DNA of 64,000 nt from an uncultured delta proteobacterium. GTDB lineage: Bacteria; Desulfobacterota; Binatia; UBA9968. The position numbers and the translations under genes are program-made. Below, piece by piece: positions 1 through 41,169 of the stretch. Within the stretch, counting starts at the first letter, position 1. The number at the start of each line of letters is the position of its first letter. The notes under the pieces are model-generated. The model saw nothing but the letters and a program-made list of their open reading frames with translations, made no database searches and was not told the DNA's origin. The stretch spans positions 192,001 to 256,000 of the forward strand of contig CAVWLW010000027.1 of assembly GCA_963755715.1 (NCBI GenBank), in the 5' to 3' direction.

Positions 1-297
1 GAATTCACACTGGCCGCAGCCGGTCAGCGGATAGAGACAGACCGGATCACCGACTTTGACATTCGCGACTTTCGCCCCGACTTCTACGACCACGCCGGCG
101 CCATCCGCACCGAGAATGTGCGGCATCGGCACGACAATGCCGGTTGCGCCCATGCGGTTCCAGATATCGATATGATTGATCGCCGCCGCTTTCAGCTTGA
201 CGATCACGTCATCGGGCTCAATTAATCTTGGCTCGTCCGCCTCTTCGTAGAAGAGTTGCTCCACGCCGCCGTAACCGTGCATGCGAACTGCCTTCAA
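1..297 (-). CDS. Zinc-binding (medium-chain) alcohol dehydrogenase/oxidoreductase, N-terminal part; runs off the window edge
   Basis: Manual translation from TTG at 297: MKAVRMHGYGGVEQLFYEEADEP...VIVKLKAAAINHIDIW...PHILGADGAGVVVEVG...VGDPV...GCGQCEF, an ADH_N GroES-like domain with the start of the structural Zn loop; AGGAG RBS upstream. Not in the ORF track. Confidence 0.9.
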   Translation of the reverse strand, partial: MKAVRMHGYGGVEQLFYEEADEPRLIEPDDVIVKLKAAAINHIDIWNRMGATGIVVPMPHILGADGAGVVVEVGAKVANVKVGDPVCLYPLTGCGQCEF

Positions 298-454
298 GAA
301 ATTTCTCCTGCTTCGACAGACAACTCGGTAACAAGAGAAATTTTTGAAGTCAAACCGGCGTGCACGGCAAAGGAGTCTCTTCACACCGAACGGCGCTTGA
401 ATTCGAACTACAGAACGCGCGGCTCTGTTTCGAAAATAAATGTAAGTTTAGCTT

Positions 455-575
455 TAGGGTAGGGTGTCCCCTTAGCGGGGACACCCCGGGGTGATAGCGT
501 CAAACATGAACCGAGGAGGGGAGTCCATGCTCACGCTCGGGAACTTGTTTTGCCGGTGCAATCCGGCAAGTCGAA
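455..575 (-). ncRNA. Candidate 3'-UTR-derived small RNA with an anti-Shine-Dalgarno loop (UCCCCUCCUCG)
   Basis: On the minus strand AGCGU-GAGCAUGGAC[UCCCCUCCUCG]GUUCAUGUUU-G-ACGCU (537-496) forms a ~15-bp stem whose G-U pairs work only in this orientation; flanked by hairpins at 550-569 and 462-486. Confidence 0.5.
462..486 (-). terminator. Strong GC-rich hairpin, probable 3' end of the zinc-finger/sRNA transcript
   Basis: Perfect 10-bp inverted repeat GGGTGTCCCC-ttagc-GGGGACACCC; no immediate U-tract, so terminator function is uncertain. Confidence 0.5.
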
Positions 576-583
576 AAAAACAT

Positions 584-784
584 TTACCTCATTCGATTCA
601 TAGCGAACTGAAGCTTCTTAAGCTCACTCTGCAGAAACAGATCCTTTAACTCATGACGATCCATATGCGCTTCGAGCAACTCTGTGGGAAACATTCTCGC
701 ACCACAGCGATTGCAGACCGCCGCGCGAAAGGTTTCCTTTTCAAACTGGATGTCGTGCGAATCGGTGCTGTTTAATGATTCCAT
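584..784 (-). CDS. 66-aa small protein with a C2H2-type zinc-finger motif
   Basis: C-NR-C-GARMFPTELLEA-H-MDR-H = C-x2-C-x12-H-x3-H; purine-rich RBS (AAAGAGGGA) upstream of ATG; dedicated sigma54 promoter. Confidence 0.8.
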   Translation of the reverse strand: MESLNSTDSHDIQFEKETFRAAVCNRCGARMFPTELLEAHMDRHELKDLFLQSELKKLQFAMNRMR

Positions 785-826
785 TTGTCCCTCTTTATTC
801 GATTACTTGCAGACGATGCAGGCTAG

Positions 827-843
827 AGCAATTGATATGCCAG
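827..843 (-). promoter_or_regulatory. Sigma54 (RpoN) -24/-12 promoter
   Basis: Minus strand CTGGCAT-ATCAA-TTGCT matches YTGGCAC-N5-TTGCW with exact spacing; predicted +1 near 816, about 30 nt before the ATG at 784. Confidence 0.8.
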
Positions 844-868
844 TTCGGAAGGCGCTGAAAGGATCGGC

Positions 869-881
869 CAACATATTGATA
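869..881 (-). promoter_or_regulatory. IHF binding site
   Basis: Minus strand TATCAA-TATG-TTG is a perfect WATCAA-N4-TTR, lying between the sigma54 promoter and the upstream palindrome. Confidence 0.7.
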
Positions 882-950
882 TCTCGTAGAATCGGCTTGA
901 CAATGGCAAGTGGACAAACAAGTTTCCGCACAAAGTCCGATCGTGGCGGT

Positions 951-965
951 TGTCAATCGTTGACA
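951..965. promoter_or_regulatory. Palindromic upstream activator sequence (probable enhancer-binding-protein site)
   Basis: TGTCAA-TCG-TTGACA perfect dyad about 140 bp upstream of the predicted sigma54 start site. Confidence 0.55.
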
Positions 966-1287
966 TTTTTGTGCTCCGATCGATCAGGATCTACCCATGA
1001 CGGCTTCAAGGCTTGACTCGATCGCGGGTGCCAATTTTTTGGCGGACAAAGCATTGGAGTCGCATATAGGGCCTATCCGCAGATCGGCAAAGTAAGATCG
1101 TACTCGACCGTGGCAATGCGGTGGCGGCGCGCGACCGTGAGATCACTAAAGAGACGCGCGAAAGGACGCGCTGGCAACGGCATCGGCTTTAGTCCGAGGC
1201 GCAAGGCGCGCCCTTACACGGACAAGAAATCACCGCCCGGAAAATGCAGCAGCGTATTAGGAGCTGCGTGAAAGCGCTGTAAAAAAT

Positions 1288-3003
1288 TCAAACTTGGCGC
1301 AAGATCGCCATGCCGTGACCGGCGAGAGAGATGCGAACCGCGCGACGATTGCCGCAAGTTTCCACGCTAAGCCGCGTTTTGGGGTCGAGTAAGTTGGTCA
1401 GCTTGGCGCCATCTTTATTGAGATTGGCGTCCACCGTCACGTAGTCGGTTCGAGGAACCGCTTCGAGATTGAGCGCGATCAGCACTTCGGTATCGTCGAG
1501 GATTCTCGAGTATGCCAGGGTGCATCGACCATCGAGCGGAAAGCCGAAGTCGATGCCATTGCCGGAAATCTCTCGAAAATATTGGCGACCGTAGCGTAGC
1601 GCCGGTTCGTTTCGGCGCACCGCGGCGATTTGCGCGATGCTTTTATAGATCGGATTTCCCGGTTTGAAAAAGTGGCGCTGCCGACTGTCGAAAGCGCCCC
1701 ACTCGCCGCCGAACATGCACTCCCGCACATAGCTGTCATTATCGCCGCCGCCGTCGAACCCCTGCTCCGTGCCGTAATAGATGCACGGCACTCCCTGGCT
1801 CGTCAGCAAATAACCGATCGTCTGCGCCGCTTGTGGTGGAAACGGATTGGCGTGCATGAACCGCCTATAGGGGCGCGCCATCTGGTCGTGGTTATCGACG
1901 AACGTAACGAAATATTGGCCGGCTTCGCCGTGGTCGGCGTACTCGGTCTTAAAGCGCTCGTAACGCGCGCGCAACTCCGCCGGATTCAAAAAACCTTTGA
2001 GGGTTTCCTCTAAAATAAAATACAGGGGAAAATCCAGCGCAGCGTCGAGCGAGGGAAAACGTTCGTTGGTCCCTTCGATTCGGCTGTTGCGGCCGAGGTA
2101 ATGCTGCAGCGTTTGATCGTCGGCGACGATCTCGCCAAAAATAAAAAAATTGTGCTTGCCGATGCGCCGGGCGTACTCGCGAACTGCGTTGCAAAAGATC
2201 GCCGTCGCACTCGATTCCATATGCTTGACCGTATCCAAACGAAAGCCGTCGATGTCGGCGGCAGCGATCCAGTACTTGTAGACCTTGATCAGCCCGTCCA
2301 ACACGTCGGCGCGCCGGATATCGAGCTCTTTCAAGCTCAAAAAATCGCCGTTGATCGCCTCTTCGGGATCGCTCCAGTTGCGGATCTGGCCGCGCCGCTT
2401 GTAACTCTCCGGCCGCTGCAGCTCGATCGGCCAAACCGCGTCGTCTTCTTGCAGGTTCGGTGCTGCCTCGTTTTCGCGCCAGAAACCGAAATCGAAGGGA
2501 GCGCTTGATTGATTAGAATAGAAGTATGGAAAATCGCCGGGATAGGCCCAATTGTCGCCGGTGTGGTTCAAGATGATATCGAGGATCACATACATGTCGC
2601 GCGCGTGGGCTTCGCTGACGAGTTTCTGTAAATCTTCTTTGGTGCCGAAGCGCGGATCGACTTCAAGAAAGTTTTGGATGCCGTAGCCGTGGTAGCTGTC
2701 GGCTTTTTCCCGGCGATTTTTCAATATCGGGCTGAGCCAGATCGCGTTGGCGCCCAATCCTTTAATATAATTTAGCCGGCGCATGATTCCTTTGAGATTA
2801 CCGCCTTGAAAGATTTTTCCTTGCGCCGGATCTCGGCCTTGCGGCCCCGATGCGACATAGGGCCGCAGACCCTTGCTGTTATTATCAAAGCGGTCCACGA
2901 GTAAAAAATAAACAAATACATCGCGCCAATCGGCTGGAGACGAAAAGACATCATCTTGCGGAGTAAAATCCAACTGCTGAACGGATCGAAGCGGCTCGGC
3001 CAT
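1288..3003 (-). CDS. Alpha-amylase family (GH13) glycoside hydrolase, cytoplasmic
   Basis: GH13 conserved regions DIILNH, DGFRLDTVKH, GE, FVDNHD, GVPCIYYGTEQ; no signal peptide. Confidence 0.92.
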   Translation of the reverse strand: MAEPLRSVQQLDFTPQDDVFSSPADWRDVFVYFLLVDRFDNNSKGLRPYVASGPQGRDPAQGKIFQGGNLKGIMRRLNYIKGLGANAIWLSPILKNRREKADSYHGYGIQNFLEVDPRFGTKEDLQKLVSEAHARDMYVILDIILNHTGDNWAYPGDFPYFYSNQSSAPFDFGFWRENEAAPNLQEDDAVWPIELQRPESYKRRGQIRNWSDPEEAINGDFLSLKELDIRRADVLDGLIKVYKYWIAAADIDGFRLDTVKHMESSATAIFCNAVREYARRIGKHNFFIFGEIVADDQTLQHYLGRNSRIEGTNERFPSLDAALDFPLYFILEETLKGFLNPAELRARYERFKTEYADHGEAGQYFVTFVDNHDQMARPYRRFMHANPFPPQAAQTIGYLLTSQGVPCIYYGTEQGFDGGGDNDSYVRECMFGGEWGAFDSRQRHFFKPGNPIYKSIAQIAAVRRNEPALRYGRQYFREISGNGIDFGFPLDGRCTLAYSRILDDTEVLIALNLEAVPRTDYVTVDANLNKDGAKLTNLLDPKTRLSVETCGNRRAVRISLAGHGMAILRQV

Positions 3004-3173
3004 TGCTCCTCCCGAGACATTTTTTTTCTAATGATACAACCTGAACTTCGCGAAACAACTCCGCAGCGCATCGAATATTTCGATCGCGCGCAGATTTTTC
3101 GCGCTAGATCGTCAGATAGAAATGGAGATTGGCTGGAAGCGAATATCGCAGCGTTGGCTGGCGTGAACCGCCG

Positions 3174-4292
3174 TTAAGAACGGCCCGCGAGACGCCGCAA
3201 TTTTTCTTTGTCGACTTCGATGCCGTGTCCTGCGGTCATCGGCGGATAGGCTGTGCCGCGCGTTACTGTGATGGGACTGAAAATATCTTGCTCGCCGAGC
3301 CGCATGAAGCCGGTCATCTCACCGCCGGGTTGAGCATTTTTTAACGCACAGTGAAGTTGCATCTCCGCGGCGGAAAGGATCGTCGTGCACGCGCTTCCCT
3401 GGCCGATGACAACGGGGAGCCCTTTCGCGCCGACCACCGCCGCGACTTCACGCGCGCTTTCAAATCCGCCGATGTGCGTGAGCTTGATCTTCAAAAGATC
3501 GGCCGCCTGCTCCTCGAGCACCGCCAGCGCATCCTCCGGCGAGCTCACGCTTTCCTGTGCCGCGATCGGGATGCCGACGGCGCGGCGTAATTCGGCGAGG
3601 CTGCGCAAATCGGAGCGGGTCAACGGCTGCTCGGCGTCGGTGATGTGAAAGCGGCTGAGCTCGTGCAAGACAACGCGCGCGTCGGCGAAAGAATAAGCAG
3701 CGTTGCCGTCGACGCGGATCGAAGCGTCGTCACCGACGGCCTGGCGTACAGCGCGCACCCGCTCGATATCTTTTGCATGATCCGGTTGGCCGATCTTGAT
3801 TTTAAATGTGCGAAAGCCCTCTTGTTGGAGCAAGCGAGCGCGCGCGCCGATCACTTCCGGCCCTAAATCCATCCCCAATCCGCCGACGAGGTTTATCTCG
3901 CGGCGATGAGGCCCGCCAAAAAAGCGGCAGAGCGGCACGCGATAAGCTTTTCCCAAAGCGTCGAAGATCGCTATTTCTATGGCCGCTTTGGTAATCGGAT
4001 GGCCATAGCGAACGCGATGAAGCTTGCTGATGACAACACCCGTCTCTTCGAGATCCAGACCAAGGAGCGCCGGCGCAAAATATTTTTGCGCCATGATCTC
4101 CATCGTTTCCAGAGTCTCGTAGGTATTGCCCGGCCGCCCCTGGGTGGCCTCGCCCCAGCCTTCGATGCCATTCTCCGTCTCGACCCGGACGATCAGCGAG
4201 CGGCAATCTTCGAGGAAACCCGCGGCACCGCCATAGACTTCTTTAATCGGGAGCACCAGTGAATACGTATCGAGCTCGACGATTTTCATCAT
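3174..4292 (-). CDS. Mandelate racemase/muconate lactonizing enzyme family (enolase superfamily) protein
   Basis: EGWGEA N-terminal motif, AAIEIAIFDALGK, KIK, RVDGN, EQP, KIKLTHIGG. Confidence 0.88.
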   Translation of the reverse strand: MMKIVELDTYSLVLPIKEVYGGAAGFLEDCRSLIVRVETENGIEGWGEATQGRPGNTYETLETMEIMAQKYFAPALLGLDLEETGVVISKLHRVRYGHPITKAAIEIAIFDALGKAYRVPLCRFFGGPHRREINLVGGLGMDLGPEVIGARARLLQQEGFRTFKIKIGQPDHAKDIERVRAVRQAVGDDASIRVDGNAAYSFADARVVLHELSRFHITDAEQPLTRSDLRSLAELRRAVGIPIAAQESVSSPEDALAVLEEQAADLLKIKLTHIGGFESAREVAAVVGAKGLPVVIGQGSACTTILSAAEMQLHCALKNAQPGGEMTGFMRLGEQDIFSPITVTRGTAYPPMTAGHGIEVDKEKLRRLAGRS

Positions 4293-5660
4293 GGGCCTCG
4301 CAACAAATCACCGATGGACGAAACGTCATCGAGCTTTTCTAGATCTTTGACCGCCGCGACCAGCCGCTCGAGCTGCCCTTCGGACAAGATCGAGCGCGTC
4401 AGCTTGCGCGCCTTGTCCTCAACTTCGAGTTGGGTTAACGGATTTCGCGGCGTGCCTTTGAAATGGATAATGAGCTTGGACGGACGTTGCTTGTTAGCGA
4501 GACTGACGGTCACGCGGGCGGCGCGGTCCCAGCCTTTTTGTTCGATTTCACGATCGACTTTGAGCCGGACCTTGCGCATCATGGCGAGGATTTTTTTGTC
4601 CTTGAGCTTTTTCTCGTCAAAAGATTCGGGATCGGTCGGATCGTCATACAGACTCAACGCGACGCAGAAAGGAATGCTGTACTGCGCCATCATCAAGTCT
4701 TTGGGTTGATAGATGGCATGATGCGTCACCAACTTCTCGATGCCGCCGACGGTGATTTCACGCACATCTTCCGGCTTGAATCCCGTTTCGGCTTGAAGCG
4801 CTTGCAGCGCTTCGATCGGCGCGTGGGCGTTGATGTGGCAGGCGCAGCGCTTGATGCCGATATTCATGCTCTCGAACTCGCGCCCCAGGCGGTGCGTAAG
4901 ATAAGAAAGCTTTGGTGAATCGGAATACGTCTGGCAAAAACCGAACTTCCCTTCGAGGATGCTTTCCGGCCCGGCGAAACCTCTGCTCGCGAGCAGCGCC
5001 GCGGTCACTCCTCCTTCCCCTGCTTTGCCGAGGTGGAGCCGCTTGATCATCGCGCCTTCCTGGCAGCGGGAAAATTCGATCAGCCCGCCGGAGTACGACG
5101 CCGCGATGCCGAGAGCATTGACCATCTTCGTATCATTCAATCCCAAGAGCCGGCCTGCCGCCACGGCAGCGCCGAAAGTACCGGTCAATCCGGGCGCGTG
5201 AAAACCTCTTCGCTCGAGCGAGTTTCCTGCGGCAACGCCGATGCGCGACATCACTTCGCAGCGCGGCGACAAAGGCGGTGAGCAACGCTTTGCCATCGGC
5301 TTTCGTTTCTTCCGCCATCGCAAAGGCCGGGAAGAAAAGCGGTCGCGCCCGGATGGACGCCCGCGCCCGGCTGGCGCACGTTGTCGAGCTCGAAGGCGTG
5401 GGCCATGACGCCGTTGGCGAGCGTCGCTTGCGCCGGCTGCGCCGCAGAAATTTTCGCCCAATCACGGTGGAACGGCCGCGCAGACGCGGAGTCGCGAACG
5501 AATCCGCTGACGGTGCGGCTCCACGGCTTCGTCGAGCCGTACAAGCGAGACCGCCAGGGTATCTAGAATACAGGCCTTGGCCCGCTCGATCACTTCGCCG
5601 GGAATACTGCTTGTAATTGAGTTCAAGGGCAAAGTGCGCCAGACGCTGCGTGGCGTTCAT
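4289..5660 (-). CDS. MmgE/PrpD family protein (several frameshifts)
   Basis: Fragments in three frames: MNATQRLAHFA..., ATLANGVMAHAFELDN...VHPG, RGFHAPG...KRLHLG...GFAGPESILEG...KGTPRNPL. Confidence 0.85.
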
Positions 5661-5669
5661 AGAATAAAA

Positions 5670-6656
5670 TTAGCGCACAACTTTGGCGCCGGCTTCTTTG
5701 AGCACGTCGCGCATCTGCACGGTCAGATCGTCGAAGAATTTGCTCAGCGCCGGGTCCTTTGAGATAGCCGTCTTCGAACTGATTTTGCTCCACGTACTGC
5801 TTCCACTCGCAGTTTTCTGCGAAGCGGTCGAAAACTCCTTCCCAGTATTGCACCACTTCACGCGGCGCTGCCCGGCGGCGCGACGACTCCGCGCGCTTGC
5901 GGAATCAGCGGGACGTCGATGCCTTGCTCCTTGATCGTCGGCACATTGGCCAGCGACGCCAACCGCTTCTCCGTCAGCGCAGCGATGACGCGCAAATTTC
6001 CCGCGCGAATCTGCTCGCCGGCTTCTTGCGGCTCGATCACCATCATTTGCACATGGCCGCCGAGCAGATTGGACAGCCGTTCGCCGCCGCTCGGGAAGGA
6101 AATAAAAGTTCCACTGCGCGCCGGTGGCCTTTTGCAGCAACAGGCGCATGAGATTGTCCCGCGAAGTAATCGTGCCGCCGGACTGCGCGAGCTGTTTAGG
6201 GTTTTTCTTCGCCGCCTCGATGAAGTCTTGCATATTCTTGTACGGCGAGTCCGCTTTAACCGCGATCACCGCGGGCTCCAAAACCAGACGGACGATCGGC
6301 GTCAAATCTTTTACGGTGACGTTCGCTTCGGCGGTGGTCAGAGGATTGGTCACCCACACGCCGGTAAAAAAACCGATGGTGTGCGTCTCGCCTTTTTTCT
6401 CCGCGAGGTAGGACATGGCGACGGCCGGGCCGCCGCCGGGTTTGTTGACGACCTGCATGCGCTGGGAGATGAGCTTTTCTTTTTGCAGCAGTTCGGCGAT
6501 CGCGCGCGCCAACAAATCCGAGCCGCCGCCAGGACCGGTATGAACCACGGCTTCGATTTGTTTGCTGGGCTTGAACTCCTGGCTCCAAGCACGACTCAAC
6601 GATAGAGCCATGATCGTAGCGATGGTGATCGGTAATAGAATCGCTCTATGTTTCAT
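5670..6656 (-). CDS. tctC: Tripartite tricarboxylate transporter substrate-binding protein (frameshifted)
   Basis: Signal peptide, GPGGGSDLLAR, VNKPGGG, LANVPTIKEQG; adjacent to tctA and tctB. Confidence 0.85.
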   Translation of the reverse strand: MKHRAILLPITIATIMALSLSRAWSQEFKPSKQIEAVVHTGPGGGSDLLARAIAELLQKEKLISQRMQVVNKPGGGPAVAMSYLAEKKGETHTIGFFTGVWVTNPLTTAEANVTVKDLTPIVRLVLEPAVIAVKADSPYKNMQDFIEAAKKNPKQLAQSGGTITSRDNLMRLLLQKATGAQWNFYFLPERRRTAVQSARRPCANDGDRAARSRRADSRGKFARHRCADGEAVGVAGQCADDQGARHRRPADSASARSRRAAGQRRVKWCNTGKEFSTASQKTASGSSTWSKISSKTAISKDPALSKFFDDLTVQMRDVLKEAGAKVVR

Positions 6657-6712
6657 CTTCCACGCCTCCCGTAAGATTTTGGCCGCTAATGTCTCAGCCG
6701 CAACTATCATCT

Positions 6713-8230
6713 TCAGCTCTCCCGCTCAATAGCTTCGACCCGCCAGGAGCGCACTTTGCGAACCGCCGGCAGACATAAAATCACGGCAGCGATGAACAGC
6801 AAGGTTGCCGGAAATGGGCCGGTTCGCGAGGATCGTGAGGTCGCCCTGCGACATCATCAGCGATTGGCGCAGCGCCCGCTCGAGCGCGTCGCCGAGCACC
6901 ATTCCCAAAATCAGCGCCGCCGCGGGAAAATCGAGCTTGCGCATCAGATAGCCGAGCAAACCGAAGAGGCCCATCATCCAAACATCGAACAGACTGTTGT
7001 TGACGCTGTAAACGCCGACGATGGAGATGCCGACGATGAGCGGATAGAGAACGTAATACGGCAAACGCAAAATCTGCGCGAACAGCGGCACCAGCGGCAG
7101 ATTCAAAACCAGCAGCAAGACGTTGCCGATGTACATGCTCGCGACCAGCCCCCAAAAAAGCTCCGGGATGTTCCTGGATCAGCAGCGGACCCGGCTTGAT
7201 AGCCCCAGAGAATCAGGCCGCCCAACAGGATCGCGGTGGTATTGCCGCCGGGAATGCCGAGCGTCAGCAACGGCACCAGCGCGCCGCCGGCATCGGCGTT
7301 GTTGGCGCCCTCCGGCGCGGCCACGCCTTCGATCACGCCGGTGCCGAATTTTTCCGGATGGCGCGAGACCGCCTTTTCGAGACCGTAGGATAAGAACGAG
7401 GCGACCGTCGCGCCCGCGCCGGGCAAGCGCGCCGACGAAAAAGCCGATCATCGAGCCATTCAAGAAAGCAAAGCGGCAATCCTTGAGATCTTGCAGCGTC
7501 GGCAAAAGATTTCTGAGCCCTTTCGCAAGCTTGAAAATCTCTGCGCCGCCCTGTGGATTCCAGGTTCACCAGGACTTCGCCGATCGCAAAAACCCCGACA
7601 GTCGCAGCGATAAAGTCGACGCCGCCGAGCAGCTTCACCTGGCCGAAGGTAAATCTCGATTCAGCGGTGAAAAGATCCGTGCCGATCGTCGCGATCCAAA
7701 GACCGACAAGCATCGCTAGCAGGGCTTTGACCATCGACTCGCCGGCCAAGAAAACCACCATGGCCAGCCCCAAAACCATCAAGGCGAAATACTCGGGCGG
7801 AGCAAAGCGCAACGCGAAGCGCGCCAGAGGCGGCGCGATCAGCATCAAACCCGAGCACGCCTACGGTCCCCGCGACGAACGAAGCGATGGCGGAAATTCC
7901 CAGCGCAGCCCCCGCTCTTCCTTGACGCGCCATCTGATAGCCGTCGAGACAGGTCACGACCGAAGAGGACTCTCCAGGTATGTTCAAAAGGATCGATGTA
8001 GTTGAGCCGCCGTAGCGCGCGCCGTAAAAAATACCCGCAAGCGCGATGATGGCCGTCGTGTGGTCCATTTTGAGGGTGAGCGGCAGCAACATCGCGATGG
8101 TCGCCGCCGGCCCCAAACCCGGCAACACGCCGACCATGGTGCCCAGGATCACGCCGACCAAACACCAGAATAAATTTACCGGCGTCAGCGCGACCGAAAA
8201 CCCAAGCAGGAGATTACCGAGGTCCTCCAT
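6713..8230 (-). CDS. tctA: Tripartite tricarboxylate transporter large permease (several frameshifts)
   Basis: [57 protein letters not shown] motifs across frames. Confidence 0.9.
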
Positions 8231-8252
8231 GATTCAACGATCTAACCCGGAG

Positions 8253-8714
8253 TCAGAATCCCCAAAATGCCTTCGGTAAAGACACATCGAGAGCTACGAC
8301 AAAAATCAAATGGAATGACACCGCGAGGCCGATGCCGACGCCGACCGCAAGCAAAGTGGGGCGTCGATCCAAAGCGACGATGAGGAACATCGTGAGAACT
8401 ATAAAGCTCACGGCAAATCCGATGCTGCCCAGAAGAGCGATGGCGACCATCAGCGCCAACCATGCGGCCAGGGCGCGACCGGCAGCTTTCCATGATTTGG
8501 ATTCGCCTTTAGCCTTGCTTCGGGAGATCGACAAGGATGCGAGCATCAATCCAGACGCAAATAGCACCAGGCCGATGCCGAGCCAGAGCGGAAAAAATCC
8601 CGGTCCCGGCCCGACCTCGGACACGTAGTCCAGTCTGGCAGCCACCGAAATCACGTAGATCCCGAAAGCGGCGAGACAAGCCGCAGAAATGAAATTACCT
8701 TTGTCGCGTATCAT
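8253..8714 (-). CDS. tctB: Tripartite tricarboxylate transporter small permease
   Basis: 153 aa, 4-5 TM segments, GPGFFP motif, C-terminal LDVSLP; immediately upstream of tctA. Confidence 0.88.
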   Translation of the reverse strand: MIRDKGNFISAACLAAFGIYVISVAARLDYVSEVGPGPGFFPLWLGIGLVLFASGLMLASLSISRSKAKGESKSWKAAGRALAAWLALMVAIALLGSIGFAVSFIVLTMFLIVALDRRPTLLAVGVGIGLAVSFHLIFVVALDVSLPKAFWGF

Positions 8715-8910
8715 AAGAAGTTTTACACGTGAGCGCTGTGAATAGCGTTTATTAACGATTCGCGCAAGAGCATGGAGACTGAGGCGGGAGAGTATTGCGC
8801 ACGTTCATGAAGATTCTAGCGCGAGTAGACACGGCCGTCCTGGCGTCGCTGACATGGTGACAAAACGAAACCTGTGAGAAAAACATCGAGAGCGCGCGAG
8901 CAACCGCCGG

Positions 8911-9378
8911 CTAACCAAAAATCTTGCGCTCCACGCTTTGCCAGTCGTAGGGCACAAAGTTATTTTCGCTCGGCGTCCGCATCTGCGGACTTTCAGCTTC
9001 ATCGAATAGACCGATCGACGTTTGCTGCAGTTTGCCGGCGACCAGCGCGGGAGCGTGAGCCTCGACCACGACTGCATCGGCGTCGGAACGGTTCCACGCC
9101 CAATGAATCTTGTGGGACGGGATACGATGGAAATCTCCGGCTTTGCAAAGAAAGCCGCGCTCCTCGACAAAGAACCAGATTTCGCCTTCGAGCACGTAAT
9201 TGATCTGCTCCGCCTCATGCGCGTGCGGCGTCGTGTGATAGCCGGGCGCTCGGGTGGCGTACATCAGGCTGCACTCGTTGCCGTAACCTCTTCGCACCAC
9301 CATCGCGCCCTCGCCTTCGACGCCGGTGCGTACTACCTTTCGCTCAGGCACATCTTTAGCTTTAACGTGCAGCGACAT
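8911..9378 (-). CDS. Cupin domain protein
   Basis: PGYHTTPHAHEAEQINYVLEG and GDFHRIPSHKIH cupin motifs; start reassigned to ATG 9378 (GGAG RBS). Confidence 0.85.
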   Translation of the reverse strand: MSLHVKAKDVPERKVVRTGVEGEGAMVVRRGYGNECSLMYATRAPGYHTTPHAHEAEQINYVLEGEIWFFVEERGFLCKAGDFHRIPSHKIHWAWNRSDADAVVVEAHAPALVAGKLQQTSIGLFDEAESPQMRTPSENNFVPYDWQSVERKIFG

Positions 9379-9410
9379 GAGGAATCTCCTGGGAGGAAGA
9401 TTGCACCACT

Positions 9411-9480
9411 GGAATGTTGGAGTGACGGAGTGTAATGCTCTGGAACCAACACTCCAGTACTCCAATACTCCATCACTCCA
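9411..9480. repeat. Inverted pair of short octamer tandem arrays (xxxACTCC / GGAGTxxx)
   Basis: ggaatgtt-ggagtgac-ggagtgta ... aacactcc-agtactcc-aatactcc-atcactcc. Confidence 0.75.
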
Positions 9481-9865
9481 GCTCTTTCGGTTTCTTGTAC
9501 CGCGCCTTCGGCACGATCTCGGCCACCGTACCGCCGGGAGCGCGAAACTTGATCGGAATCACTCCGGGATCGCTGATGATCTCGCAGCCGAATTTTTGCA
9601 ATTGAGCGGCCGAATCCTTCATGTCGTCGACCTCGATGGCAAAGTGATGGATGCAGGGGCCCAATCCCGACGCGCGCGCTTCGGCCGAATCCTCGCTGTC
9701 ATACTTGATCAGCGCCAGATCGATCGTGCCGTCGGTCAGATGGCGCGAGGTGTGATCTCTCACCTGGCCGGTTTCCATCTCCACGAAGCCAAAACCCTTT
9801 TCGTAAAACTCGGTGGCTTTTTCCAGATCATCGACCTTGAGCGCGATGTGAACGATTCGGGCCAT
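9473..9865 (-). CDS. VOC/glyoxalase family protein
   Basis: IVHIALKVDDLEKATEFY, IHHFAIEVDD, FRAPGGTVAEI. Confidence 0.9.
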   Translation of the reverse strand: MARIVHIALKVDDLEKATEFYEKGFGFVEMETGQVRDHTSRHLTDGTIDLALIKYDSEDSAEARASGLGPCIHHFAIEVDDMKDSAAQLQKFGCEIISDPGVIPIKFRAPGGTVAEIVPKARYKKPKELE

Positions 9866-9966
9866 GGTCCCTCCTTGCTTCGCTTGAGGTCTAACACAGT
9901 GAAGAGAAGCGATTCAACCCACCGCTATCGAGGACGACTCCCGGAGGCAAAGTTCTGCCTCGGACG

Positions 9967-11133
9967 TTAATATTTACCCAGCCTGGCTAATCTTTCAGAC
10001 GCAGCCGCGAGGGTTTCGTCCTTTTTGCAGACCGCGAATCGCGCGAAGTGTTGGCCCAGATGCTTGTCCGATTCCTGATAAAACGGACTGGCCGGAACGC
10101 AGGCGACACCGACTTCGCGAATCAACCAATGCGCGAATTGAAAGTCATCCGTCACGCGCGCCGGCGCGACGCCGCGCCAGTCGACCATGACGAAGTAACT
10201 CCCTCGCGGCTGAAAAACTTTGAAACCTGCGTTTTGAAGCGCATGGAGCACCCGGTTTCGCCGCGCTTGATAACTCGCTCGCAGATTGTCGAAAAATTGA
10301 GTCGGCAAGCAGAGTGCTGTGGCGGCGGCTGCCTGCAGCGGCGAAGCGACGGCGTAGGTAATGAATTGGTGCGCCTGATTCACTGAGTTGACCAAAGCCG
10401 CTGGTCCAACGGCCCAACCGATTTTCCAGCCCGTGACGCTGAAAGTTTTCCCCAAGCTACTGATCGTAACGGTGCGGTCTTCCATACCGGGCAGCGTCGC
10501 GAGTCGTGTATGAACCGCGTCGTCGTAAAGAATGTGCTCGTACACTTCGTCGGTGATCGCGATCACGTCGTGTTTCTGACACAGATCGGCAATCACCCGA
10601 AGCTCCTCGCGCGCATAGACTTTGCCGGTCGGGTTATGCGGCGTGTTGACGATGATCGCTCGCGTATGCGCGTTGAAAGCCCTCGCCAGCTCATCCGGAT
10701 CGAAAGTCCAATTTTCCCCGCGCAACGGAACGTAGCGCGGCGTTACGCCGGCCATGACCATGTTCGGCACATAGGTGTCATAAACCGGCTCGAACACAAT
10801 CACTTCATCGCCCGGATCAGTGAGACCGAGGACCGCCGCAAATACACCTTCGGTCGCGCCGCTGGTTACCAGAACATCGGTTTCGGCGTTGAGCTTTTGG
10901 CCGTAGAAGCGTTCGGCATGCTGCGCAATCGCTTCGCGCACAGTGGCCATGCCGATGCCGGGGGCGTATTGATTCAGCGCGCTGTTTACGGCCTTGACCG
11001 CGGCGGCGAGAACTTCCGGCGGACCATCGAAGTCCGGCGCGCCTTGGCCGAGATTTACCGCGTTGTGTTGTCGCGCCAAATCATTGATCTCGACAAAAAC
11101 CGTCGTGCCAAATCCGGCGACGCGCTGGGACAT
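9967..11133 (-). CDS. PLP-dependent class I/II aminotransferase (YbdL/kynurenine aminotransferase-like)
   Basis: NLGQGAPDF, NTPHNPTGKV, DEVYEH, SSLGKTFSVTGWKIG, RFAVCK. Confidence 0.92.
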   Translation of the reverse strand: MSQRVAGFGTTVFVEINDLARQHNAVNLGQGAPDFDGPPEVLAAAVKAVNSALNQYAPGIGMATVREAIAQHAERFYGQKLNAETDVLVTSGATEGVFAAVLGLTDPGDEVIVFEPVYDTYVPNMVMAGVTPRYVPLRGENWTFDPDELARAFNAHTRAIIVNTPHNPTGKVYAREELRVIADLCQKHDVIAITDEVYEHILYDDAVHTRLATLPGMEDRTVTISSLGKTFSVTGWKIGWAVGPAALVNSVNQAHQFITYAVASPLQAAAATALCLPTQFFDNLRASYQARRNRVLHALQNAGFKVFQPRGSYFVMVDWRGVAPARVTDDFQFAHWLIREVGVACVPASPFYQESDKHLGQHFARFAVCKKDETLAAASERLARLGKY

Positions 11134-11326
11134 CAATGAAATCTCCGGGTCATCTCCATTAAAGCTTCTTCATCGGAATAATCATGATCGCGCCTGTGTT
11201 TCAACAGTTCATTGTATGGTGTTTCGTGAGGGGTGCCCATGACTCACGCCTCGCTCATCCCTGGACATTTTCGCCAGGTTTCAATATCAAAGACAGTAAC
11301 AGACCATCCCTGAAGGAGTAATTCTC

Positions 11327-12824
11327 ATGGCTCAAACAAATGCATTTAATGTTGTCGAAGCAACCATCGAAGACATACACACCGGTTATAAATCCGGCAA
11401 GCTCACCTGTCATCAGCTCGTGCAAATGTATCTCGACCGCATCGAAGCCTTCGACAAGAAAGGCCCGAACATCAACGCACTCATCACGATCAATGCCGAC
11501 GCGCTCAAAGAAGCCGACCGCCTCGACGCGGCATATAAGGCATCCGGCCCCATTGGTCCGCTGCACGGCATTCCGGTGATCGTGAAAGATCAGGCCGATG
11601 TCAAAGGCATGCCGACGACCTTGGGCTCGCTGTTATTCAAAGATTACTTTCCCGATCGTGACTCCTTCGTCGCGGAAAAGTTGCGCAAGGCCGGCGCAGT
11701 GATTCTCGGCAAAGCCACGCTCGGCGAATTGGGCGGCGGCGACACGCATGGCTCGCTTTTCGGCTCGACAAGAAATCCTTACGACATCGAGCGTACCGTC
11801 GGCGGATCCTCGGGTGGCTCCGCGGCATCGGTGTCGGCGAATTTCTCGACGGTCGCCGTCGGCCAGGAAGGTTTGGCATCGATCCGCCGACCGTCGACGT
11901 GGAACGGCATTGCCGGCATGCGTCCTTCCGCCGGTTTGGTCAGCCGCGGCGGCGTGTACGGCTGCTGGCCGGAGATCTTCGGCTCCCTCGGCCCGATGGC
12001 GCGAAGCGTCACAGATTTGGCCAAACTTCTCGACGTCATGGCCGGCTACGATCCGGAAGATCCCATTACGGCGCGTAGCGTCGGCCATATTCCGGAAACG
12101 TTTACAAAATTTCTCGATAAGAACGGCCTCAAAGGCGCGCGCCTGGGCATTTTGCGCGAATCGATCGGCCTCAACGCCGAACCAGAATCGGCAGACTTCA
12201 AAAAGGTAAGTGAAGTTTTTGACAAAGCCATCAGCGAGTTGAAAGCCGCGGGCGCTGAGCATCGTCGATCCCATCGTCATTCCGAAGATCAAAGAGCTGC
12301 TCGCCAAACGCTCCGGCGGTCCGGGAGACACGGACGAGTCGTTTAAAAACTACTACGGCCGCAGCGCCAATCCGCCGTTCAAGACGCCGCAGGAAGTCAT
12401 CGCCGCGCCTGACTTCGCCAAAGTCGTCAAACGATCGCAAGACCGTTTCAAAAGGCAGCCCGACGCAGCGAAACACTACGAAAGTCTTAAAGCGCAAGAC
12501 GAGCTGATGACGAATTTGTTAAAAGTGATGGCCGATCACAAGCTCGACGCCATCGTGCACAAGGCCGTCGAGCACCAACCAACCTTGATCAAGGACGGCA
12601 TCGCGCCGCCCTTCACCGACCAAAAAGGCGCGCCGCATCTGAATACGTTTTTAGTCTATACGCCGACGATCGTGGTTCCCGCGGGCTTCACGCGCGACAA
12701 TCTACCGGCAGGCGTCTGCTTTATCGGCCGTCCCTACGACGACGGCAATCTGATCAAGTTCGCCTACGCTTACGAACAGGCGACCCATCATCGCAAGCCG
12801 CCGGCGAGCACGACGGGACTGTGA
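11327..12824 (+). CDS. Amidase signature family protein (frameshift near 12260)
   Basis: GPLHGIPVIVKD, GGSSGGSA, ASIRRP; C-terminus VPAGF..LPAGVCFIG...AYAYEQ in ORF 12507-12824. Confidence 0.9.
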
Positions 12825-12858
12825 TCTGTCCGTCGTTCGCTTGGTGAAAAACTTTTCT

Positions 12859-12934
12859 TCAGGGCGGGACGTAACCCGCCCTGAGAGCATCAGTTCCCAT
12901 TCGTTGGCGCTGAGCTGCGCGGCCGGCTCAGCGC
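12859..12934. terminator. Two hairpins between the convergent amidase and SBP genes
   Basis: TCAGGGCGGG-acgtaa-CCCGCCCTGA and GCGCTGAGCTG...CGGCTCAGCGC. Confidence 0.5.
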
Positions 12935-12953
12935 TCAGAAACACATTGATTTC

Positions 12954-13916
12954 TTACTTGCCGAGCGTTTTTAGAAACCCTTCCCGATCCAGCTCTTCGA
13001 GCAGGGAATTTTCGTAAAAATCCTCGATCTTGCGGTTGGTCGGCTTGTCGGTCGGTAGTCCTGCCTGGATCGTCGCCGCGTCGGACAGCGGCATGACGGG
13101 ACTGTTTTTGACAAAGTAATTATAGGATTGCGCCAGCACGTCGGCGTTGGCGAGCTTGGAATACTTTTGCAATACCTGAATGGCAAAATTTTTATTTTGC
13201 CGGTGAACGTTCAGCCCGTCGATGAGCGCCATGAGAAACCGCTTGGCTATCGGTCTGTTTTGAGTCAGGGAGGTGCGCCGCGATGCGATCACCGAGGTGG
13301 GATACGTGATCTTCAACGCGCCGAGATCGGCCAGCAAATTGAGACCGCGCCCGGTCGCGGCAAAGAGTCCCGGCGGCGCCAGCATCGTTGCTTGCGCCGA
13401 GCCGGATTCCAGCGCGGCGATGCGCACGGGGTCCGGCCCCGCCTGCAAAAAAGATACGTTGCGCGCGCCGACACCCAGTCGATCGAGCGCGATTCGAGCA
13501 GCGGTCTCCTCGATGCCGCCGAGGCGCGCGACCACGAATATCTTACCTTTGAGATCCGCCGGCGCATGAATGTTCTTGCCCGACACCATGCCATAGGGCA
13601 TCAGCCCGTACGCCGTGGCCAAAATCACGATATCGGCGCCCTGCACGGTCGCTTGGAGTGGCGATGCGCCGCCGAGATAGGTAAATCCGATCTCGTTTGC
13701 CATCACCGACTGAATGTTGGTCAGGCCGCCTGAGATCAGCAGCATTTCAGCCGACAAACCGTATTTTTTATAGAGCCCGGCCTCGTAAGTAATCCAGAAC
13801 GGCAAGTTTTGACCTGATAGTCCCGAATAACTGACGCGCACCGCTTGAGCATAGCTCAACGACGGAAAGTAAGAGAGCGCAGCTAGAAAAATAAAAATAA
13901 CCCACCGTAGAAACAC
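12954..13916 (-). CDS. ABC transporter substrate-binding protein, NitT/TauT (SsuA/NMT1) family
   Basis: Signal peptide ending SYA-Q, GLYKKYGL, DLKGK, C-terminal 'LLEELDREGFL'. Confidence 0.85.
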   Translation of the reverse strand: MFLRWVIFIFLAALSYFPSLSYAQAVRVSYSGLSGQNLPFWITYEAGLYKKYGLSAEMLLISGGLTNIQSVMANEIGFTYLGGASPLQATVQGADIVILATAYGLMPYGMVSGKNIHAPADLKGKIFVVARLGGIEETAARIALDRLGVGARNVSFLQAGPDPVRIAALESGSAQATMLAPPGLFAATGRGLNLLADLGALKITYPTSVIASRRTSLTQNRPIAKRFLMALIDGLNVHRQNKNFAIQVLQKYSKLANADVLAQSYNYFVKNSPVMPLSDAATIQAGLPTDKPTNRKIEDFYENSLLEELDREGFLKTLGK

Positions 13917-13950
13917 CGATCCTCCTTTTTGCGCGCCCGTAGAATGGCGC

Positions 13951-14999
13951 TTATTGTAATTTAAAGATATTTTGAAAAAGTTTTTCGTAATGCTCCCAGC
14001 GCTCGCCCAGCGATTCGTCGACGGAAATCATTTGCACTTTGGCGTTCCTGATCTTTGCCATGAACGCGGATTTCACATCGGTACGCCCCGAAGGTTTGAC
14101 GAATTGTTCTTCGAGCAAGGTCTCCTGCACGTCTCTCGATAATACGTGGTTCAAATAAAGCTTGGCGGCGTTGGGATGGGGCGCGTTCGCCGCAATGCCA
14201 ATCGTGACGACGTCGACGACCGTCGGATCGAGAGCAACCCATTCGATCGGCGCGCCGCGCCGCTTGGTGAGCTCCACGCGCGGACCGTTCAGCGAAACCG
14301 CGCCTGCGTGTTCGCCGGCGGCGACCAGTTGAGTGATTAAAGTATTGCCGTTGAGTATTTTCAGGTTTTGCCCGGCCAGACGGCGCATGAAGGCGAGGCC
14401 TTTGTCTTCGCCCCAGTGGCGCAGCAGCGTCGCGAACCACTCGATGGCGGTTTGCTCGAACGCGAGCTGTCCGTTCCAGCGCGGCTCCAAAAGATCGCCG
14501 TAGGCCTTGGGCGCGGCGGTCGAGGCAATCAGCCGGGTATTATATGCGGTCACTTCTGGATTGACGTAGAACGCGGTCCAAAAGCCGTTGCGGTCTTTGA
14601 ACGCTGGATCGAAGCGGGCTCTTTCCGGTGATTCGTAATTCATGATCAGGCTGCGCTGGATGAGCGCCGTCATATTGAGCCGGCTGATACCGATCACGTC
14701 GACCAAAGGCCGTCCGGCGCGCGCTTCGGTCATCACTCTTGCGGTGATCCGCTCGCTGGCGCCGGGACGAGTCAGCGACACTTCGACAAATGGGTATTTT
14801 TCTCGAAAATGATTGACGATGCGCGAGTGATCCGGCACGGCTAGGAGCGAATAAATAACCAGCCGCCCTTCCTTGCGCGCGCCTTCGACGAGCGCCGACG
14901 ACTCCGCCGCGCAAGCAAGGGAACTGTGATTGATCGCGCAGAGCACAACCAGCAGCGAAATAAGGCCGCCGGCGCGGCGCGCTCGATTTTTGTTTGCAT
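13951..14999 (-). CDS. ABC transporter substrate-binding protein, Fe3+/thiamine/polyamine-like; start uncertain
   Basis: GARKEGRLVIY, AYNT, PKAYGDLLEPRW, APHPNAAKLY; probable ATG at 14999 with a frameshift in the signal peptide. Confidence 0.82.
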
Positions 15000-15052
15000 C
15001 ACGGTTTGCGTCAATCGCTCTTTGAACGTGAAAGAATTCGCCGGCTACGCGA

Positions 15053-16517
15053 TTATTCCGTTCTTTGGACGGTGAGAGAGAAGTCGCCCTTGCGGATATG
15101 GACGTGCCCCAGTTTCTTTTTGCCAAGCTCTTCGACCAGACGCACAAGCGGCTTGCGCGCGAGATATTCCTTCCTCGGCGGCGCGCCTTTTAGAGCATCG
15201 ACAAACTCGGGACCCGCGTAGAAGCGTAGCAGCAATTCTTCGTCCGACAAATGTGGTCCGCCGTATTGTTTGCGCACTTCTTCGAGCGCCGGCTCCGGGT
15301 ACTCGATTTTTTCAATCTCTCGGGCGCGCGGACGATCGAGAATTTTCGCCTTAACGGCTGAATCCATATGATCGCTGCCTTCTTTGCCCCAGAGACCGAG
15401 CGCATATTGAATCACTGGATCCGTGACTTCTTTATATCGCTCGCCCAGAATTACGTTGATCGCCGCTTGGCTGCCGACAAACTGCGCGAACGGCGTCACC
15501 ATGATCGGATAGCCGAGCTCGGCGCGCACCTGCGCGGTTTCTTCCAGCACTTCTTGCAACTTTTCCTCTTTGCCCATCAGCTTGAGCTGATGGCGCAGGT
15601 TCGAAATCATACCGCCCGGCACCTGATGGCCGTACCAGGCTTGATCGAATTCGCGCGGGGCGCCCACCGGCAAGCCCTCGCGCTTGGCAATCCACGAGAA
15701 GTGCTCGCGCACCGGCGGCAGCGCGTCGAGATTCACCAATGGCTTATATCCTAACGCGCGCAGGTTGCCGACGACATTGAACACGGAAGGTTGCGACGAG
15801 CCGTTGGCGAGCGGCGGTATCGCGGTATGAACGATGCGCACGCCTTCTTTCACCGCTTCGAGCAGATTGAAAGGCGCCAAGCCCATTGTTGCAGTGGGCA
15901 TGGAACTCAAGCGGCGTGTCGCCGATATTTTGTTTGATGAGTCTTACCAAATCGCGCGTGCGGTCCGGCGTTAACATGCCGCCGACGTCTTTGAAGCACA
16001 GCCGATACGGCTTCAGTGCCGCCGCGTCGCGCGCTTTTTGCGCGTAATACTCGTCGGTGTGGCGCGGCGAGATCGAGTAGATCAGGTTCATCACCGTTTC
16101 CATGCCGAGCTTTTTAAGTTCTTTCGCTTCTTTTCCCAAAGCTTCGAAGTCATTCCAAGCGTTGGAAGTGCGGGTCAGATCGATGCCGTACTTGGCAACG
16201 GTTTGAATCACCAACCGGCGGATGCACTCCGGAATGAACTCAAAGCCGCTGTGCAACCCGCCGTGATAGCGCAGGCGAGTTTTTTTGATCTCTTTGGTTC
16301 CAAGCCGCAGCCAATCCCACGGATCTTCTTTGTGCTCGCGAACGAATTTTTTGAAACGCAAGCTCAAGAAAAACTCCATGGAATCGAAGCCCGCCTCGTC
16401 CATGTGGCGCAACGCCGGCAGCATCATGCCGGTGGTCATGCCATAGGCCCAAAGGCTGATATCGCCATCGCGCAGAGTCGTATCGACGATTCGGATTTCG
16501 TCCACGGCTTGATTCAC
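15053..16517 (-). CDS. Carboxyltransferase of the pyruvate carboxylase B/oxaloacetate decarboxylase alpha family, no biotinyl domain (frameshift near 15890)
   Basis: DTTLRDG, EDPWDWL, KDVGG, HAH, HQVPGGMISNL, GYPIMVTPFAQFVGSQA. Confidence 0.87.
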
Positions 16518-16538
16518 CTCGACGTCTTCATCTGACGT

Positions 16539-17901: not shown

Positions 17902-17958
17902 GAATTAAACCCAAGGCCGCTGCCGATAACTTGAAACTCCCGAGCTCAACGACTGTGC

Positions 17959-19026: not shown

Positions 19027-19264
19027 TCTTCCTCCGTAAATTGAGTCGATCTGAAGAAATCGAGGCGAGATAAATCCATGCAGATAAATTTCGCCCTCGA
19101 TCCAAATACCGGCCTCGTCATGTCATATCTTTTCTTGCGCCGAGCGTCCACATCTGTCAAACGTACGGCGGTATTTTGACTCAGAAATCGAGAGCTAGTT
19201 TTTTTACTCGATGCTGGAATCCGCAGTCGATTTAGGATCGGGAGATGTCACTGATGGTCTTTAA

Positions 19265-19303
19265 ACGACAAAGCCCAGCGAGGAGCAATCCCTCGCTGGG
19301 CTT
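19265..19303 (-). terminator. Rho-independent terminator of the CsgG-like gene
   Basis: 13-bp stem AAGCCCAGCGAGG/CCTCGCTGGGCTT followed by a T-rich tail on the minus strand. Confidence 0.7.
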
Positions 19304-19333
19304 GAGTCGATGCCGTTAGATTCTTATTTAAGT

Positions 19334-31962: not shown

Positions 31963-32080
31963 CTCTCAGTCCCCTTCTAAAATCAAGGCGGTGATTTCTG
32001 CTGCGAAGCTAGTCTGAGAACCCTTCCTTGTCAAGGTAATCGGCCCTCGAAAAAGCGACTGTCATCTCGGACGAAATGGA

Positions 32081-33229: not shown

Positions 33230-33262
33230 CGACCTTAGATCAACTTACGATGGCTCGCCCGA

Positions 33263-34346: not shown

Positions 34347-34459
34347 GCAGCACCTCCGCAAACTATCCTGTGCCTTGAGACCCCTCGTCGAATAATTCGT
34401 CGATCATGGCGTTTTTCCGCTCCGCTGAAAACCGCGGCGTGCGGTCAAACCCCTTGGGG

Positions 34460-41135: not shown

Positions 41136-41169
41136 CCAACTTGTTGCTACCAACTCGCCGCAGCAAAAT

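Follow-up and report, generated by a model that had tools for sequence, protein, structure and literature searches.

A conserved anti-Shine-Dalgarno hairpin in the 3'UTR of a zinc-finger microprotein gene of Binatia: a candidate regulator of translation

What is the role of a stem-loop that displays an anti-Shine-Dalgarno (SD) sequence between two protein-coding genes of an uncultured member of the Binatia? The locus lies in a 64,000-nt stretch of contig CAVWLW010000027.1 (assembly GCA_963755715.1), analysed as a whole and referred to here as the window. AbcR1 and AbcR2 are alphaproteobacterial sRNAs that repress mRNAs encoding ABC-transporter substrate-binding proteins (SBPs), and sRNAs of the AbcR type are Hfq-dependent products of independent genes that have a promoter and a terminator of their own. 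An earlier note on the window had read positions 496-537 of the minus strand as an anti-SD regulatory RNA, had pointed to AbcR and cuckoo RNAs as its likes, and had proposed SBP mRNAs as a natural target set. The kind of element proposed there stands, by structure, loop and conservation; a stand-alone sRNA and AbcR or cuckoo membership do not, and the SBP link is unsupported.

On the minus strand, the intergenic hairpin has the 66-aa gene A (784..584) upstream and an alcohol-dehydrogenase-like gene downstream, the latter starting near 296 and preceded, near 345, by a TTGACT-like promoter box that belongs to it. The reported stem-loop, HP2, is the middle one of three hairpins (HP1, HP2 and HP3) in the ~130-nt 3'UTR of gene A. 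In the direction of transcription, the features are as follows.

802..831, minus: promoter-like block upstream of gene A, TTGC.. about 19-20 nt before a TAAAT/TAAT-like box (19-locus alignment)
785..800, minus: short 5'UTR with the invariant purine motif ..AGAGGGACAA; SD-like AGAGGGAC at 787-794, before ATG 784 (alignment)
584..784, minus: gene A, 66-aa protein with C-x2-C-x12-H-x3-H and a long C-terminal helix; stop TAA 584-586 (ORF, orthologues)
570..583, minus: U-rich single-stranded linker after the stop codon (sequence and composition)
550..569, minus: HP1, GC-rich hairpin UUGCCGG / CCGGCAA (alignments)
538..549, minus: conserved single-stranded spacer with GUUCCC (..GTGTTCCCGA in most rows of alignment A4, below) (alignments)
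496..537, minus: HP2, the reported stem-loop (fold, RNAalifold, covariation)
513..519, minus: CCUCCUC anti-SD core in the HP2 loop (alignments, folds, 16S comparison)
488..495, minus: C-rich spacer AUCACCCC after HP2 (sequence, A4)
461..487, minus: HP3, 11-pair hairpin GGGGUGUCCCC / GGGGACACCCU, no U-tract after it (fold, A4)
452..460, minus: C-rich 3' tail, ACCCUAAAG here and (U)UCCCC(C)AAAA in most relatives (alignments)

HP2 is a conserved, strand-specific RNA structure

On the minus strand, positions 496-537 form a single 16-pair hairpin of -17.3 kcal/mol (z = -3.32; 2/200 shuffles as good), its dot-bracket structure comprising three G-U pairs, one U-G pair, one bulged G and the 9-nt loop CCCCUCCUC. 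The plus strand, by comparison, reaches -8.9 kcal/mol (z = 0.00), a value equalled or bettered by 87/200 shuffles, and only the minus strand beats its shuffles. Within the 91-nt context of 455-545, the minus strand folds at -42.8 kcal/mol (z = -4.96; 0/200 shuffles) and the plus strand at -35.8 kcal/mol (z = -1.48).

Relatives were sought by DNA and protein searches, both tallies of which include the unpublished genomes G005 and G079. Among 41 genomes, namely the window's own (G000) and 40 relatives, DNA matches were found in 21, the window's own included, and in 19 of the 24 other same-genus genomes. These matches cover window positions 794-453, the ORF with its three hairpins, and end ~10 nt past HP3. 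The gene A protein occurs in 59/89 genomes of the family and in 0/33 of two sister families searched. An alignment of 21 same-genus sequences (A1) was the source of a covariance model, R1; 96.5% of its cells are paired, against 43-50% in slid controls, double changes occur at 6 pairs, and 0/500 shuffles match either the paired percentage or the covariation score. A larger alignment of 37 sequences from several genera (A4), which was fitted to the model and is therefore biased towards the structure, has 96.4% of cells paired and double changes in 11/28 pairs, and 0/500 shuffles reach any of five measures. For HP2 itself, 96.1% of A4 cells are paired and compensatory double changes are found at 5/12 pairs, as in one pair with GC:11 UA:8 AU:3 GU:3 UG:3 CG:2 and another with UA:22 CG:12. 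HP1 is 96.0% paired in A1, with double changes at 3/5 pairs in A4. In HP3, 6/11 pairs never vary in A4, 97.3% of cells are paired, and loop length ranges from 3 to 10 nt.

R1 matched directly 3' of the orthologous ORF in 37/45 loci at E <= 1e-8, a count that omits the two unpublished genomes, and by this model the element is absent from the other eight (L114, L115, L118, L119 and L121-L124). In the window's own genome, R1 finds this locus alone at E <= 0.01, three other matches having E >= 0.5; HP3 is matched on both strands because it is palindromic. BLAST for extra copies in that genome returned chance-level short matches only, and a scan of its intergenic regions for hairpins with CCUCCUC in the loop turned up 12 sites, which form no recognisable family. 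Gene A and its 3'UTR are a conserved unit within one family of Binatia metagenome-assembled genomes.

G-U pairs are common at several positions of the HP2 stem (AU:22 / GU:15 and GU:19 / AU:17 in A4). Such alternation of A-U and G-U fits a minus-strand RNA, and the G-U pairs would be A-C mismatches on the other strand or in duplex DNA, which argues against a plus-strand or DNA feature. That GAGGAGGGG is instead the ribosome-binding site of a plus-strand peptide starting at ATG 527, the scenario that the earlier note had named as its own refutation, or part of a protein-bound DNA palindrome, is scarcely credible. The window genome does have a plus-strand ORF of 40 aa from ATG 527, or 52 aa from GTG 491, but an ATG lies 3-12 nt after GAGGAGG in only 3/19 orthologous loci and the ORFs range from 14 to 83 aa. 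The stem keeps its G-U pairs while the plus-strand fold does no better than shuffles, and the varying loop lengths are unlike a spaced operator. For HP3, too, a DNA operator is disfavoured by variable spacing and U-G pairs; a loop of 3-10 nt over a constrained stem is better explained by an RNA hairpin. The strand-specific stem-loop described by the earlier note is therefore borne out by folds, shuffles and the alignments of relatives, and HP2 is confirmed as a real RNA structure.

The loop sequence is equally well kept. CCUCCUC is invariant in 21/21 rows of A1 and lies within the HP2 loop in 33/37 rows of A4, that is, of element-bearing loci; loss of the loop in homologs, which would have spoken against the proposal, was not what the alignments gave. 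The four exceptions are L081-L083, from one genus (g9), and L110, and in L081-L083 the HP3 loop carries a CU-rich motif, UCCCCUCA or UCCUCA, in place of the HP2 loop. The 16S rRNA of the window's own genome ends in ..GGAUCACCUCCUUUCU and has CCUCCU in common with the HP2 loop, so that the loop closely repeats the anti-SD core of the ribosome, in support of its description as an anti-SD sequence. Loops of more distant genera, (C)ACCUCCUC or CACCUCCUC, come nearer still to the 16S tail GAUCACCUCCUUUCU. Partition-function folds of full-length mRNAs predict CCUCCUC to be unpaired (P >= 0.8) in 14/17 cases.

A zinc-finger microprotein gene and its transcript

Orthologues of gene A show a protein-like conservation pattern, with C24, C27, H40 and H44 invariant in 18 sequences at classical C2H2 spacing. 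Classical fingers of this kind combine C-x2-4-C-x12-H-x3-5-H with a beta-beta-alpha fold. An AlphaFold2 model (mean pLDDT 82.5) predicts short strands followed by a helix at 36-65 that holds both histidines. The best PDB profile matches are eukaryotic classical C2H2 fingers, albeit weak (E 0.0075-1); a Pfam scan yielded no family at E <= 0.001, zf-C2H2 not being reached, and Foldseek against the PDB gave weak C2H2/UBZ finger matches only, none at E <= 0.001. Judged by its spacing and modelled fold, the gene A product is a classical C2H2-type zinc-finger microprotein. To our knowledge, the classical C2H2 finger is rarely reported in bacteria. Among 50 homologues, eight bear the database name "ribosomal protein S27AE" and one "L34E"; we rejected these assignments as the profile aligns to C2H2 fingers, and the S27AE name probably reflects an artefact of the zinc motif.

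A paralogue, gene B (G000:C32:57486-57662), has 33-36% identity to the gene A protein. In many genomes the gene B 3'UTR likewise has hairpins and CU-rich patches. Two 9-nt matches link the genes in the window genome, one between the HP2 loop and the gene B SD region, the other between the gene B 3' tail and the gene A SD region. Cross-regulation of the two genes was considered and rejected: elsewhere the gene B SD is a canonical GGAGG (16/21 loci) and its tail usually matches only GUCCC. The 9-nt matches are chance or unproven.

Public RNA-labelled soil libraries, which may contain DNA, were a source of transcript evidence. In ten such runs, between one third and one half of the words sampled from window 440-1000 are present. 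Four runs from four studies each gave one contig, at 452-789, 491-787, 435-801 and 488-801, the last followed by 15 further letters resembling an HP3 variant. The region is therefore present in RNA, as far as these library labels go. All four contigs join the ORF to the hairpin, although contigs cannot give RNA ends, strand or level. Over window 200-1300, no RNA contigs were found beyond the block of gene A and its 3'UTR, gaps that we do not read as silence. That four contigs, obtained independently, share the extent of the conserved block is a fair indication that gene A and the hairpin lie on one monocistronic transcript of ~345 nt. The free-standing sRNA gene envisaged earlier gives way to a hairpin inside a conserved ORF-plus-3'UTR unit, both parts of which are joined in the RNA contigs.

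The boundaries of this unit show several conserved signals. Upstream, TTGCT and T(A/G)TAA(A/T) blocks are conserved across 19 aligned loci; a promoter consensus scan did not have the block at 802..831 among the sites given, and by its sequence the TTGC...TAAAT-like block at ~802-831 may be the promoter of the gene A transcript. The 5'UTR motif GACAGAGAGGGACAA is found wherever the 3' element is found; the element-lacking loci L115, L118, L119 and L121 carry ordinary SDs of the AGGAG type in its place. Downstream of the stop codon, the linker at 570..583 is AU-rich in most relatives and, from its composition, could be cut by an enzyme of the RNase E type; the genome does encode an RNase E/G homologue. 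The spacer AUCACCCC is only loosely conserved in A4. The tail at 452..460 is the end of both the conserved block and the best RNA contig (452). No U-tract follows any of the three hairpins, HP2 being followed by AUCACCCC and HP3 by ACCCUAAAG. An intrinsic (Rho-independent) terminator was accordingly rejected, a scan of window 1-20000 having given no terminator-like site in 452-583; U-tail terminators over the whole of 1-20000 (31) were not above chance (26.3 +/- 5.4 in shuffles). HP3 is a likely 3'-end or protective hairpin.

Predicted targets and known anti-SD RNAs

The genome is very rich in SBP genes, as the earlier note had supposed from the window. Within the window, 14 of 35 scanned proteins, picked mostly by size from 64 predicted genes, match SBP-type families, one of them below curated cut-offs only. 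Genome-wide there are at least 150 PF09084 and at least 136 PF13343 matches, and phmmer on gene calls gave 458 NMT1-like, 178 SBP_bac_6-like and 26 TctC-like proteins, or 662/7160. Target tests used these 7160 genes with start sites from a crude purpose-made gene finder. Duplex energies of the loop with initiation regions are better for SBP genes than for others (median -10.6 versus -9.8; p = 5e-10), but so is the generic SD energy (p = 2e-17), and the SBP difference is gone once SD strength is regressed out (p = 0.12). The top 50, 100, 200 and 400 predicted targets include 6, 11, 24 and 43 SBP genes, against 4.6, 9.2, 18.5 and 37 expected. Given this residual p value and the lack of enrichment among top targets, the idea of an SBP regulon is unsupported by the in-silico test.

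More generally, the stronger the generic SD, the better the loop pairing energy (r = 0.61). Of the 7160 predicted initiation regions, 17.7% contain GGAGG, and at the level of sequence, potential targets exist. CC before GAGGAGG in initiation regions was seen in 8/129 occurrences, which is no enrichment. The initiation region of gene A itself ranks 2236/7160 as a loop target, which favours action in trans over action in cis. A search of the genome, at 93.6% completeness, yielded no Hfq (PF17209).

Comparison with known RNAs places the element outside the Rfam families. Rfam cmscan of window 1-3000 on both strands gave 0 matches at E <= 10, AbcR and cuckoo-type models included, so that membership of either family, as earlier suggested, is not upheld. 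The element resembles AbcR in its C/U-rich single-stranded anti-SD seed and in the SBP-rich genome around it. Unlike AbcR, it is no independent sRNA gene, has no Rfam match and is accompanied by no Hfq that we could find, and its predicted targets lack SBP enrichment beyond SD strength.

The closest design appears to be ccaF1-CcsR1-4 (CIN1) of the Alphaproteobacteria. There, stable hairpins with CCUCCUC(CC) loops come after a small ORF on one transcript, the four tandem CcsR RNAs lie within the 3'UTR of a small-protein mRNA, each RNA has two hairpins with CCUCCUCCC in each loop, ar14 is the Rfam family named, and the adjacent ORF, which has a DUF1127 domain, is co-transcribed with the RNAs, these being released by RNase E (PMC8034643). 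The Binatia element is likewise an anti-SD hairpin in the 3'UTR of a small-protein mRNA, in a genome that also encodes an RNase E-type enzyme. Unlike CcsR, it has one anti-SD hairpin per locus (HP2, with a CU-rich HP3 loop added in few loci), its motif CCUCCUC is 7 of the 9 letters, its ORF encodes a C2H2 zinc finger of no Pfam family rather than DUF1127, and it is a single-copy element of a Binatia host with no Rfam match.

A second parallel is icaR mRNA of Staphylococcus aureus, in which a C-rich anti-SD motif in a long 3'UTR pairs with the mRNA's own SD (PMC3868564). Interactions of this type also involve cutting of the duplex by RNase III and a change in protein level. The Binatia 3'UTR is similarly predicted to be able to pair with its own 5'UTR. 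Unlike in icaR, complementarity to the own SD amounts to 5-6 pairs and is not outstanding (duplexes of -6.3 to -13.0 kcal/mol), and the hairpin loop that carries the motif is kept from genus to genus. RsaE-type sRNAs of Firmicutes use C-rich unpaired motifs for G-rich SD regions (PMC6158497); several C-rich unpaired motifs also occur in the Binatia 3'UTR but, unlike those described for RsaE, they are inside an mRNA 3'UTR.

How the element may act

HP2 probably regulates translation. We tentatively favour, at somewhat less than even confidence, a 3'UTR-borne anti-SD regulatory module by analogy with ccaF1-CcsR ("cuckoo") or the icaR 3'UTR. HP2 is the central element of a conserved, structured 3'UTR, on what is in this reading a short monocistronic mRNA for a C2H2 microprotein in one Binatia family. 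The single-stranded HP2 loop, a perfect generic anti-SD held on a stable stem, would pair with GGAGG-type SDs and block 30S binding, most likely on other mRNAs in trans. Either the entire mRNA would be the regulator, as a dual-function RNA, or cleavage at the U-rich linker would free a 3' fragment with that role. Further seed sites may be provided by GUUCCC, AUCACCCC and the tail, which are also C-rich and single-stranded, and HP3 probably sets the 3' end and shields it. Divided roughly by route, action in trans is a leaning that falls short of even confidence, while cis action and a structural or protein-binding role are each unlikely, to about the same degree.

Autoregulation of the icaR type would have the HP2 loop or the tail pair with the SD of gene A itself, which would reduce translation and might lead to the duplex being cleaved. 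A precedent is the icaR 3'UTR motif UCCCCUG, which pairs with its own SD (PMC3868564). Full-length folds of 17 orthologues predict that the own SD, GAGGGA, is mostly paired (P unpaired 0.02-0.33), with the C-rich tail at 452..460 as its most frequent partner and its main one in most orthologues; long-range pairs in 350-nt MFE folds are, however, unreliable. Compared with random 3' windows, the pairing of 5'UTR and tail (-6.3 to -11.8 kcal/mol) ranks in the best 2-17% and that of 5'UTR and loop (-7.9 to -13.0 kcal/mol) in the best 0.5-13%, yet the pairing involves 5-6 contiguous pairs only, and the own initiation region holds the middling rank as a loop target given above. The unusual motif GACAGAGAGGGACAA and the 3' element co-occur across genera, as cis pairing would have it, but this co-occurrence is confounded because of shared ancestry. 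Moreover, the 5' motif is unaltered where the HP2 loop has lost CCUCCUC (L081-083 and L110) and also in L017, L085 and L080, whose tail is not C-rich, so the two ends change without co-variation. We consider autoregulation unlikely. A somewhat unlikely alternative is that the 3'UTR is a 3'-end or stability element, a protein platform or both, its C-rich patches being rut-like Rho sites or protein sites and its anti-SD likeness incidental. The absence of U-tracts after the hairpins, together with U-tail terminators no more frequent than in shuffles, agrees with such a role, as does the presence of Rho in the genome. Loop (C7 G0) and spacer (C5 G0) are unpaired stretches rich in C and poor in G, but the 3'UTR taken whole (C 42 and G 32 of 132 nt) is highly structured and has no shortage of G, which counts against this role. 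The near-invariant HP3 stem suggests sequence-specific recognition and would suit a protein platform, to which the hairpins and CU-rich patches of the gene B 3'UTR also lend some weight. The binder could possibly be the encoded zinc-finger protein, by analogy with CcaF1, which binds its own ccaF1-CcsR transcript (PMC8034643). Set against all of these variants is the loop itself: a 7-nt motif fixed over covarying stems in nearly all element-bearing loci exceeds the constraint usual for rut sites or protective hairpins.

Resemblance of the loop to 16S rRNA allows a further reading, in which an abundant RNA with (C)ACCUCCUC mimics the 16S 3' tail and decoys SDs or 16S-3'-end factors, tuning global translation. 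This we hold to be very improbable, and we know of no precedent for a 16S-tail-mimic RNA. The distant-genus loops CACCUCCUC and ACCUCCUC do compare well with the tail GAUCACCUCCUUUCU, and the spacer AUCACCCC after HP2 recalls its AUCACC, although that spacer is kept loosely. Small soil RNA libraries from four studies yielded the transcript on assembly, but contig depth cannot rank expression. A bolder combination, doubtful but less so, would be a short dual-function mRNA of soil Binatia that encodes the single-finger C2H2 microprotein and carries a structural 16S anti-SD mimic competing with ribosomes for SD-led mRNAs or decoying 16S-3'-end factors; the microprotein would bind its own RNA via the invariant HP3 and the GGGACA-containing 5' motif and so control maturation, a pair like CcaF1 and CcsR having been invented independently in a different phylum and with an unrelated fold.

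Between these possibilities we return to the anti-SD module acting in trans as the preferred reading. A full-text literature search found no paper pairing "Binatota" with "small RNA", and among the matches listed for Binatota or Binatia, none was on RNA regulation. If the reading is true, the element would be the first candidate regulatory RNA for the Binatia lineage, with covariation, RNA-library evidence and a testable seed. Since the host is uncultured, the practical value lies in a compact ~345-nt module that is testable in a heterologous host. The design of a small-protein gene with an anti-SD hairpin in its 3'UTR would then have arisen outside the Alphaproteobacteria, with an unrelated protein, and would suggest a recurrent arrangement in which a microprotein is coupled to translational control.

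Names, paralogue and neighbours of the small zinc-finger gene

Among 50 homologues of the small protein encoded by gene A, whose 3'UTR is the conserved element, eight are named "ribosomal protein S27AE" by their source and one "L34E"; P0006, P0008 and P0009 are among those with ribosomal names. Because the small-protein profile aligns to C2H2 fingers, these names seem to be annotation artefacts caused by the zinc motif. The window's own genome also encodes a paralogue, gene B, whose 69-aa product shares 33-36% identity with the gene A protein. Loci flanking or related to gene A are as follows.

G000:C32:57486-57662, minus strand: gene B (locus L087:575-784)
Window 1-384, minus strand: alcohol-dehydrogenase-like gene, downstream of the element
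Window 1288-3003: alpha-amylase gene, upstream of the element

The gene B 3'UTR is CU-rich with a structure of its own, comprising two hairpins, one formed by CUUCCC/GGGAAG and another whose loop is C-rich, and a GUCCCUCCCUCU tail, and such features recur in 13-15 of 21 paralogue loci of other genomes. Within the window's genome, the SD region of gene B matches the anti-SD loop of hairpin HP2 over 9 nt, a match for which conservation in other genomes was sought and not found. Across 31 loci checked in relatives, the alcohol-dehydrogenase-like gene was syntenic with the element in 14, one from another genus, and the alpha-amylase gene was not syntenic.

RNA machinery and solute-binding proteins of the genome

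A search of the genome (93.6% complete) for Hfq (PF17209) found none; Rho is present, as is an RNase E/G homologue. Within window positions 1-20000, sites resembling U-tail terminators did not rise above the level in shuffles (31 versus 26.3 ± 5.4). The 16S rRNA gene, which is full-length, ends 3' in ..GGAUCACCUCCUUUCU.

G000:C75:35710-37267, minus strand: 16S rRNA gene

Solute-binding-protein genes are extremely expanded genome-wide. By phmmer, on our own gene calls, 458 NMT1-like, 178 SBP_bac_6-like and 26 TctC-like proteins were counted; together they make up about 9% of the 7160 genes predicted. Matches in Pfam searches numbered at least 150 for PF09084, which had 566 first-look candidates, and 136 for PF13343.

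Window 30871-35581 and 38483-44256: solute-binding-protein gene examples
Window 49487-53697: four consecutive NMT1-type genes

A hexamer shared by the gene A 5'UTR and hairpin HP3

Two invariant minus-strand sequences at gene A have GGGACA in common.

Window 785-800, minus strand: gene A 5'UTR motif, ..AGAGGGACAA
Window 461-471, minus strand: 3' arm of the HP3 stem, GGGGACACCC

As a lone 6-mer match, this sharing may be due to chance. The 5'UTR motif and the 3' element are found together across genera, and the shared hexamer could reflect either alternative pairing or one binding factor for both.
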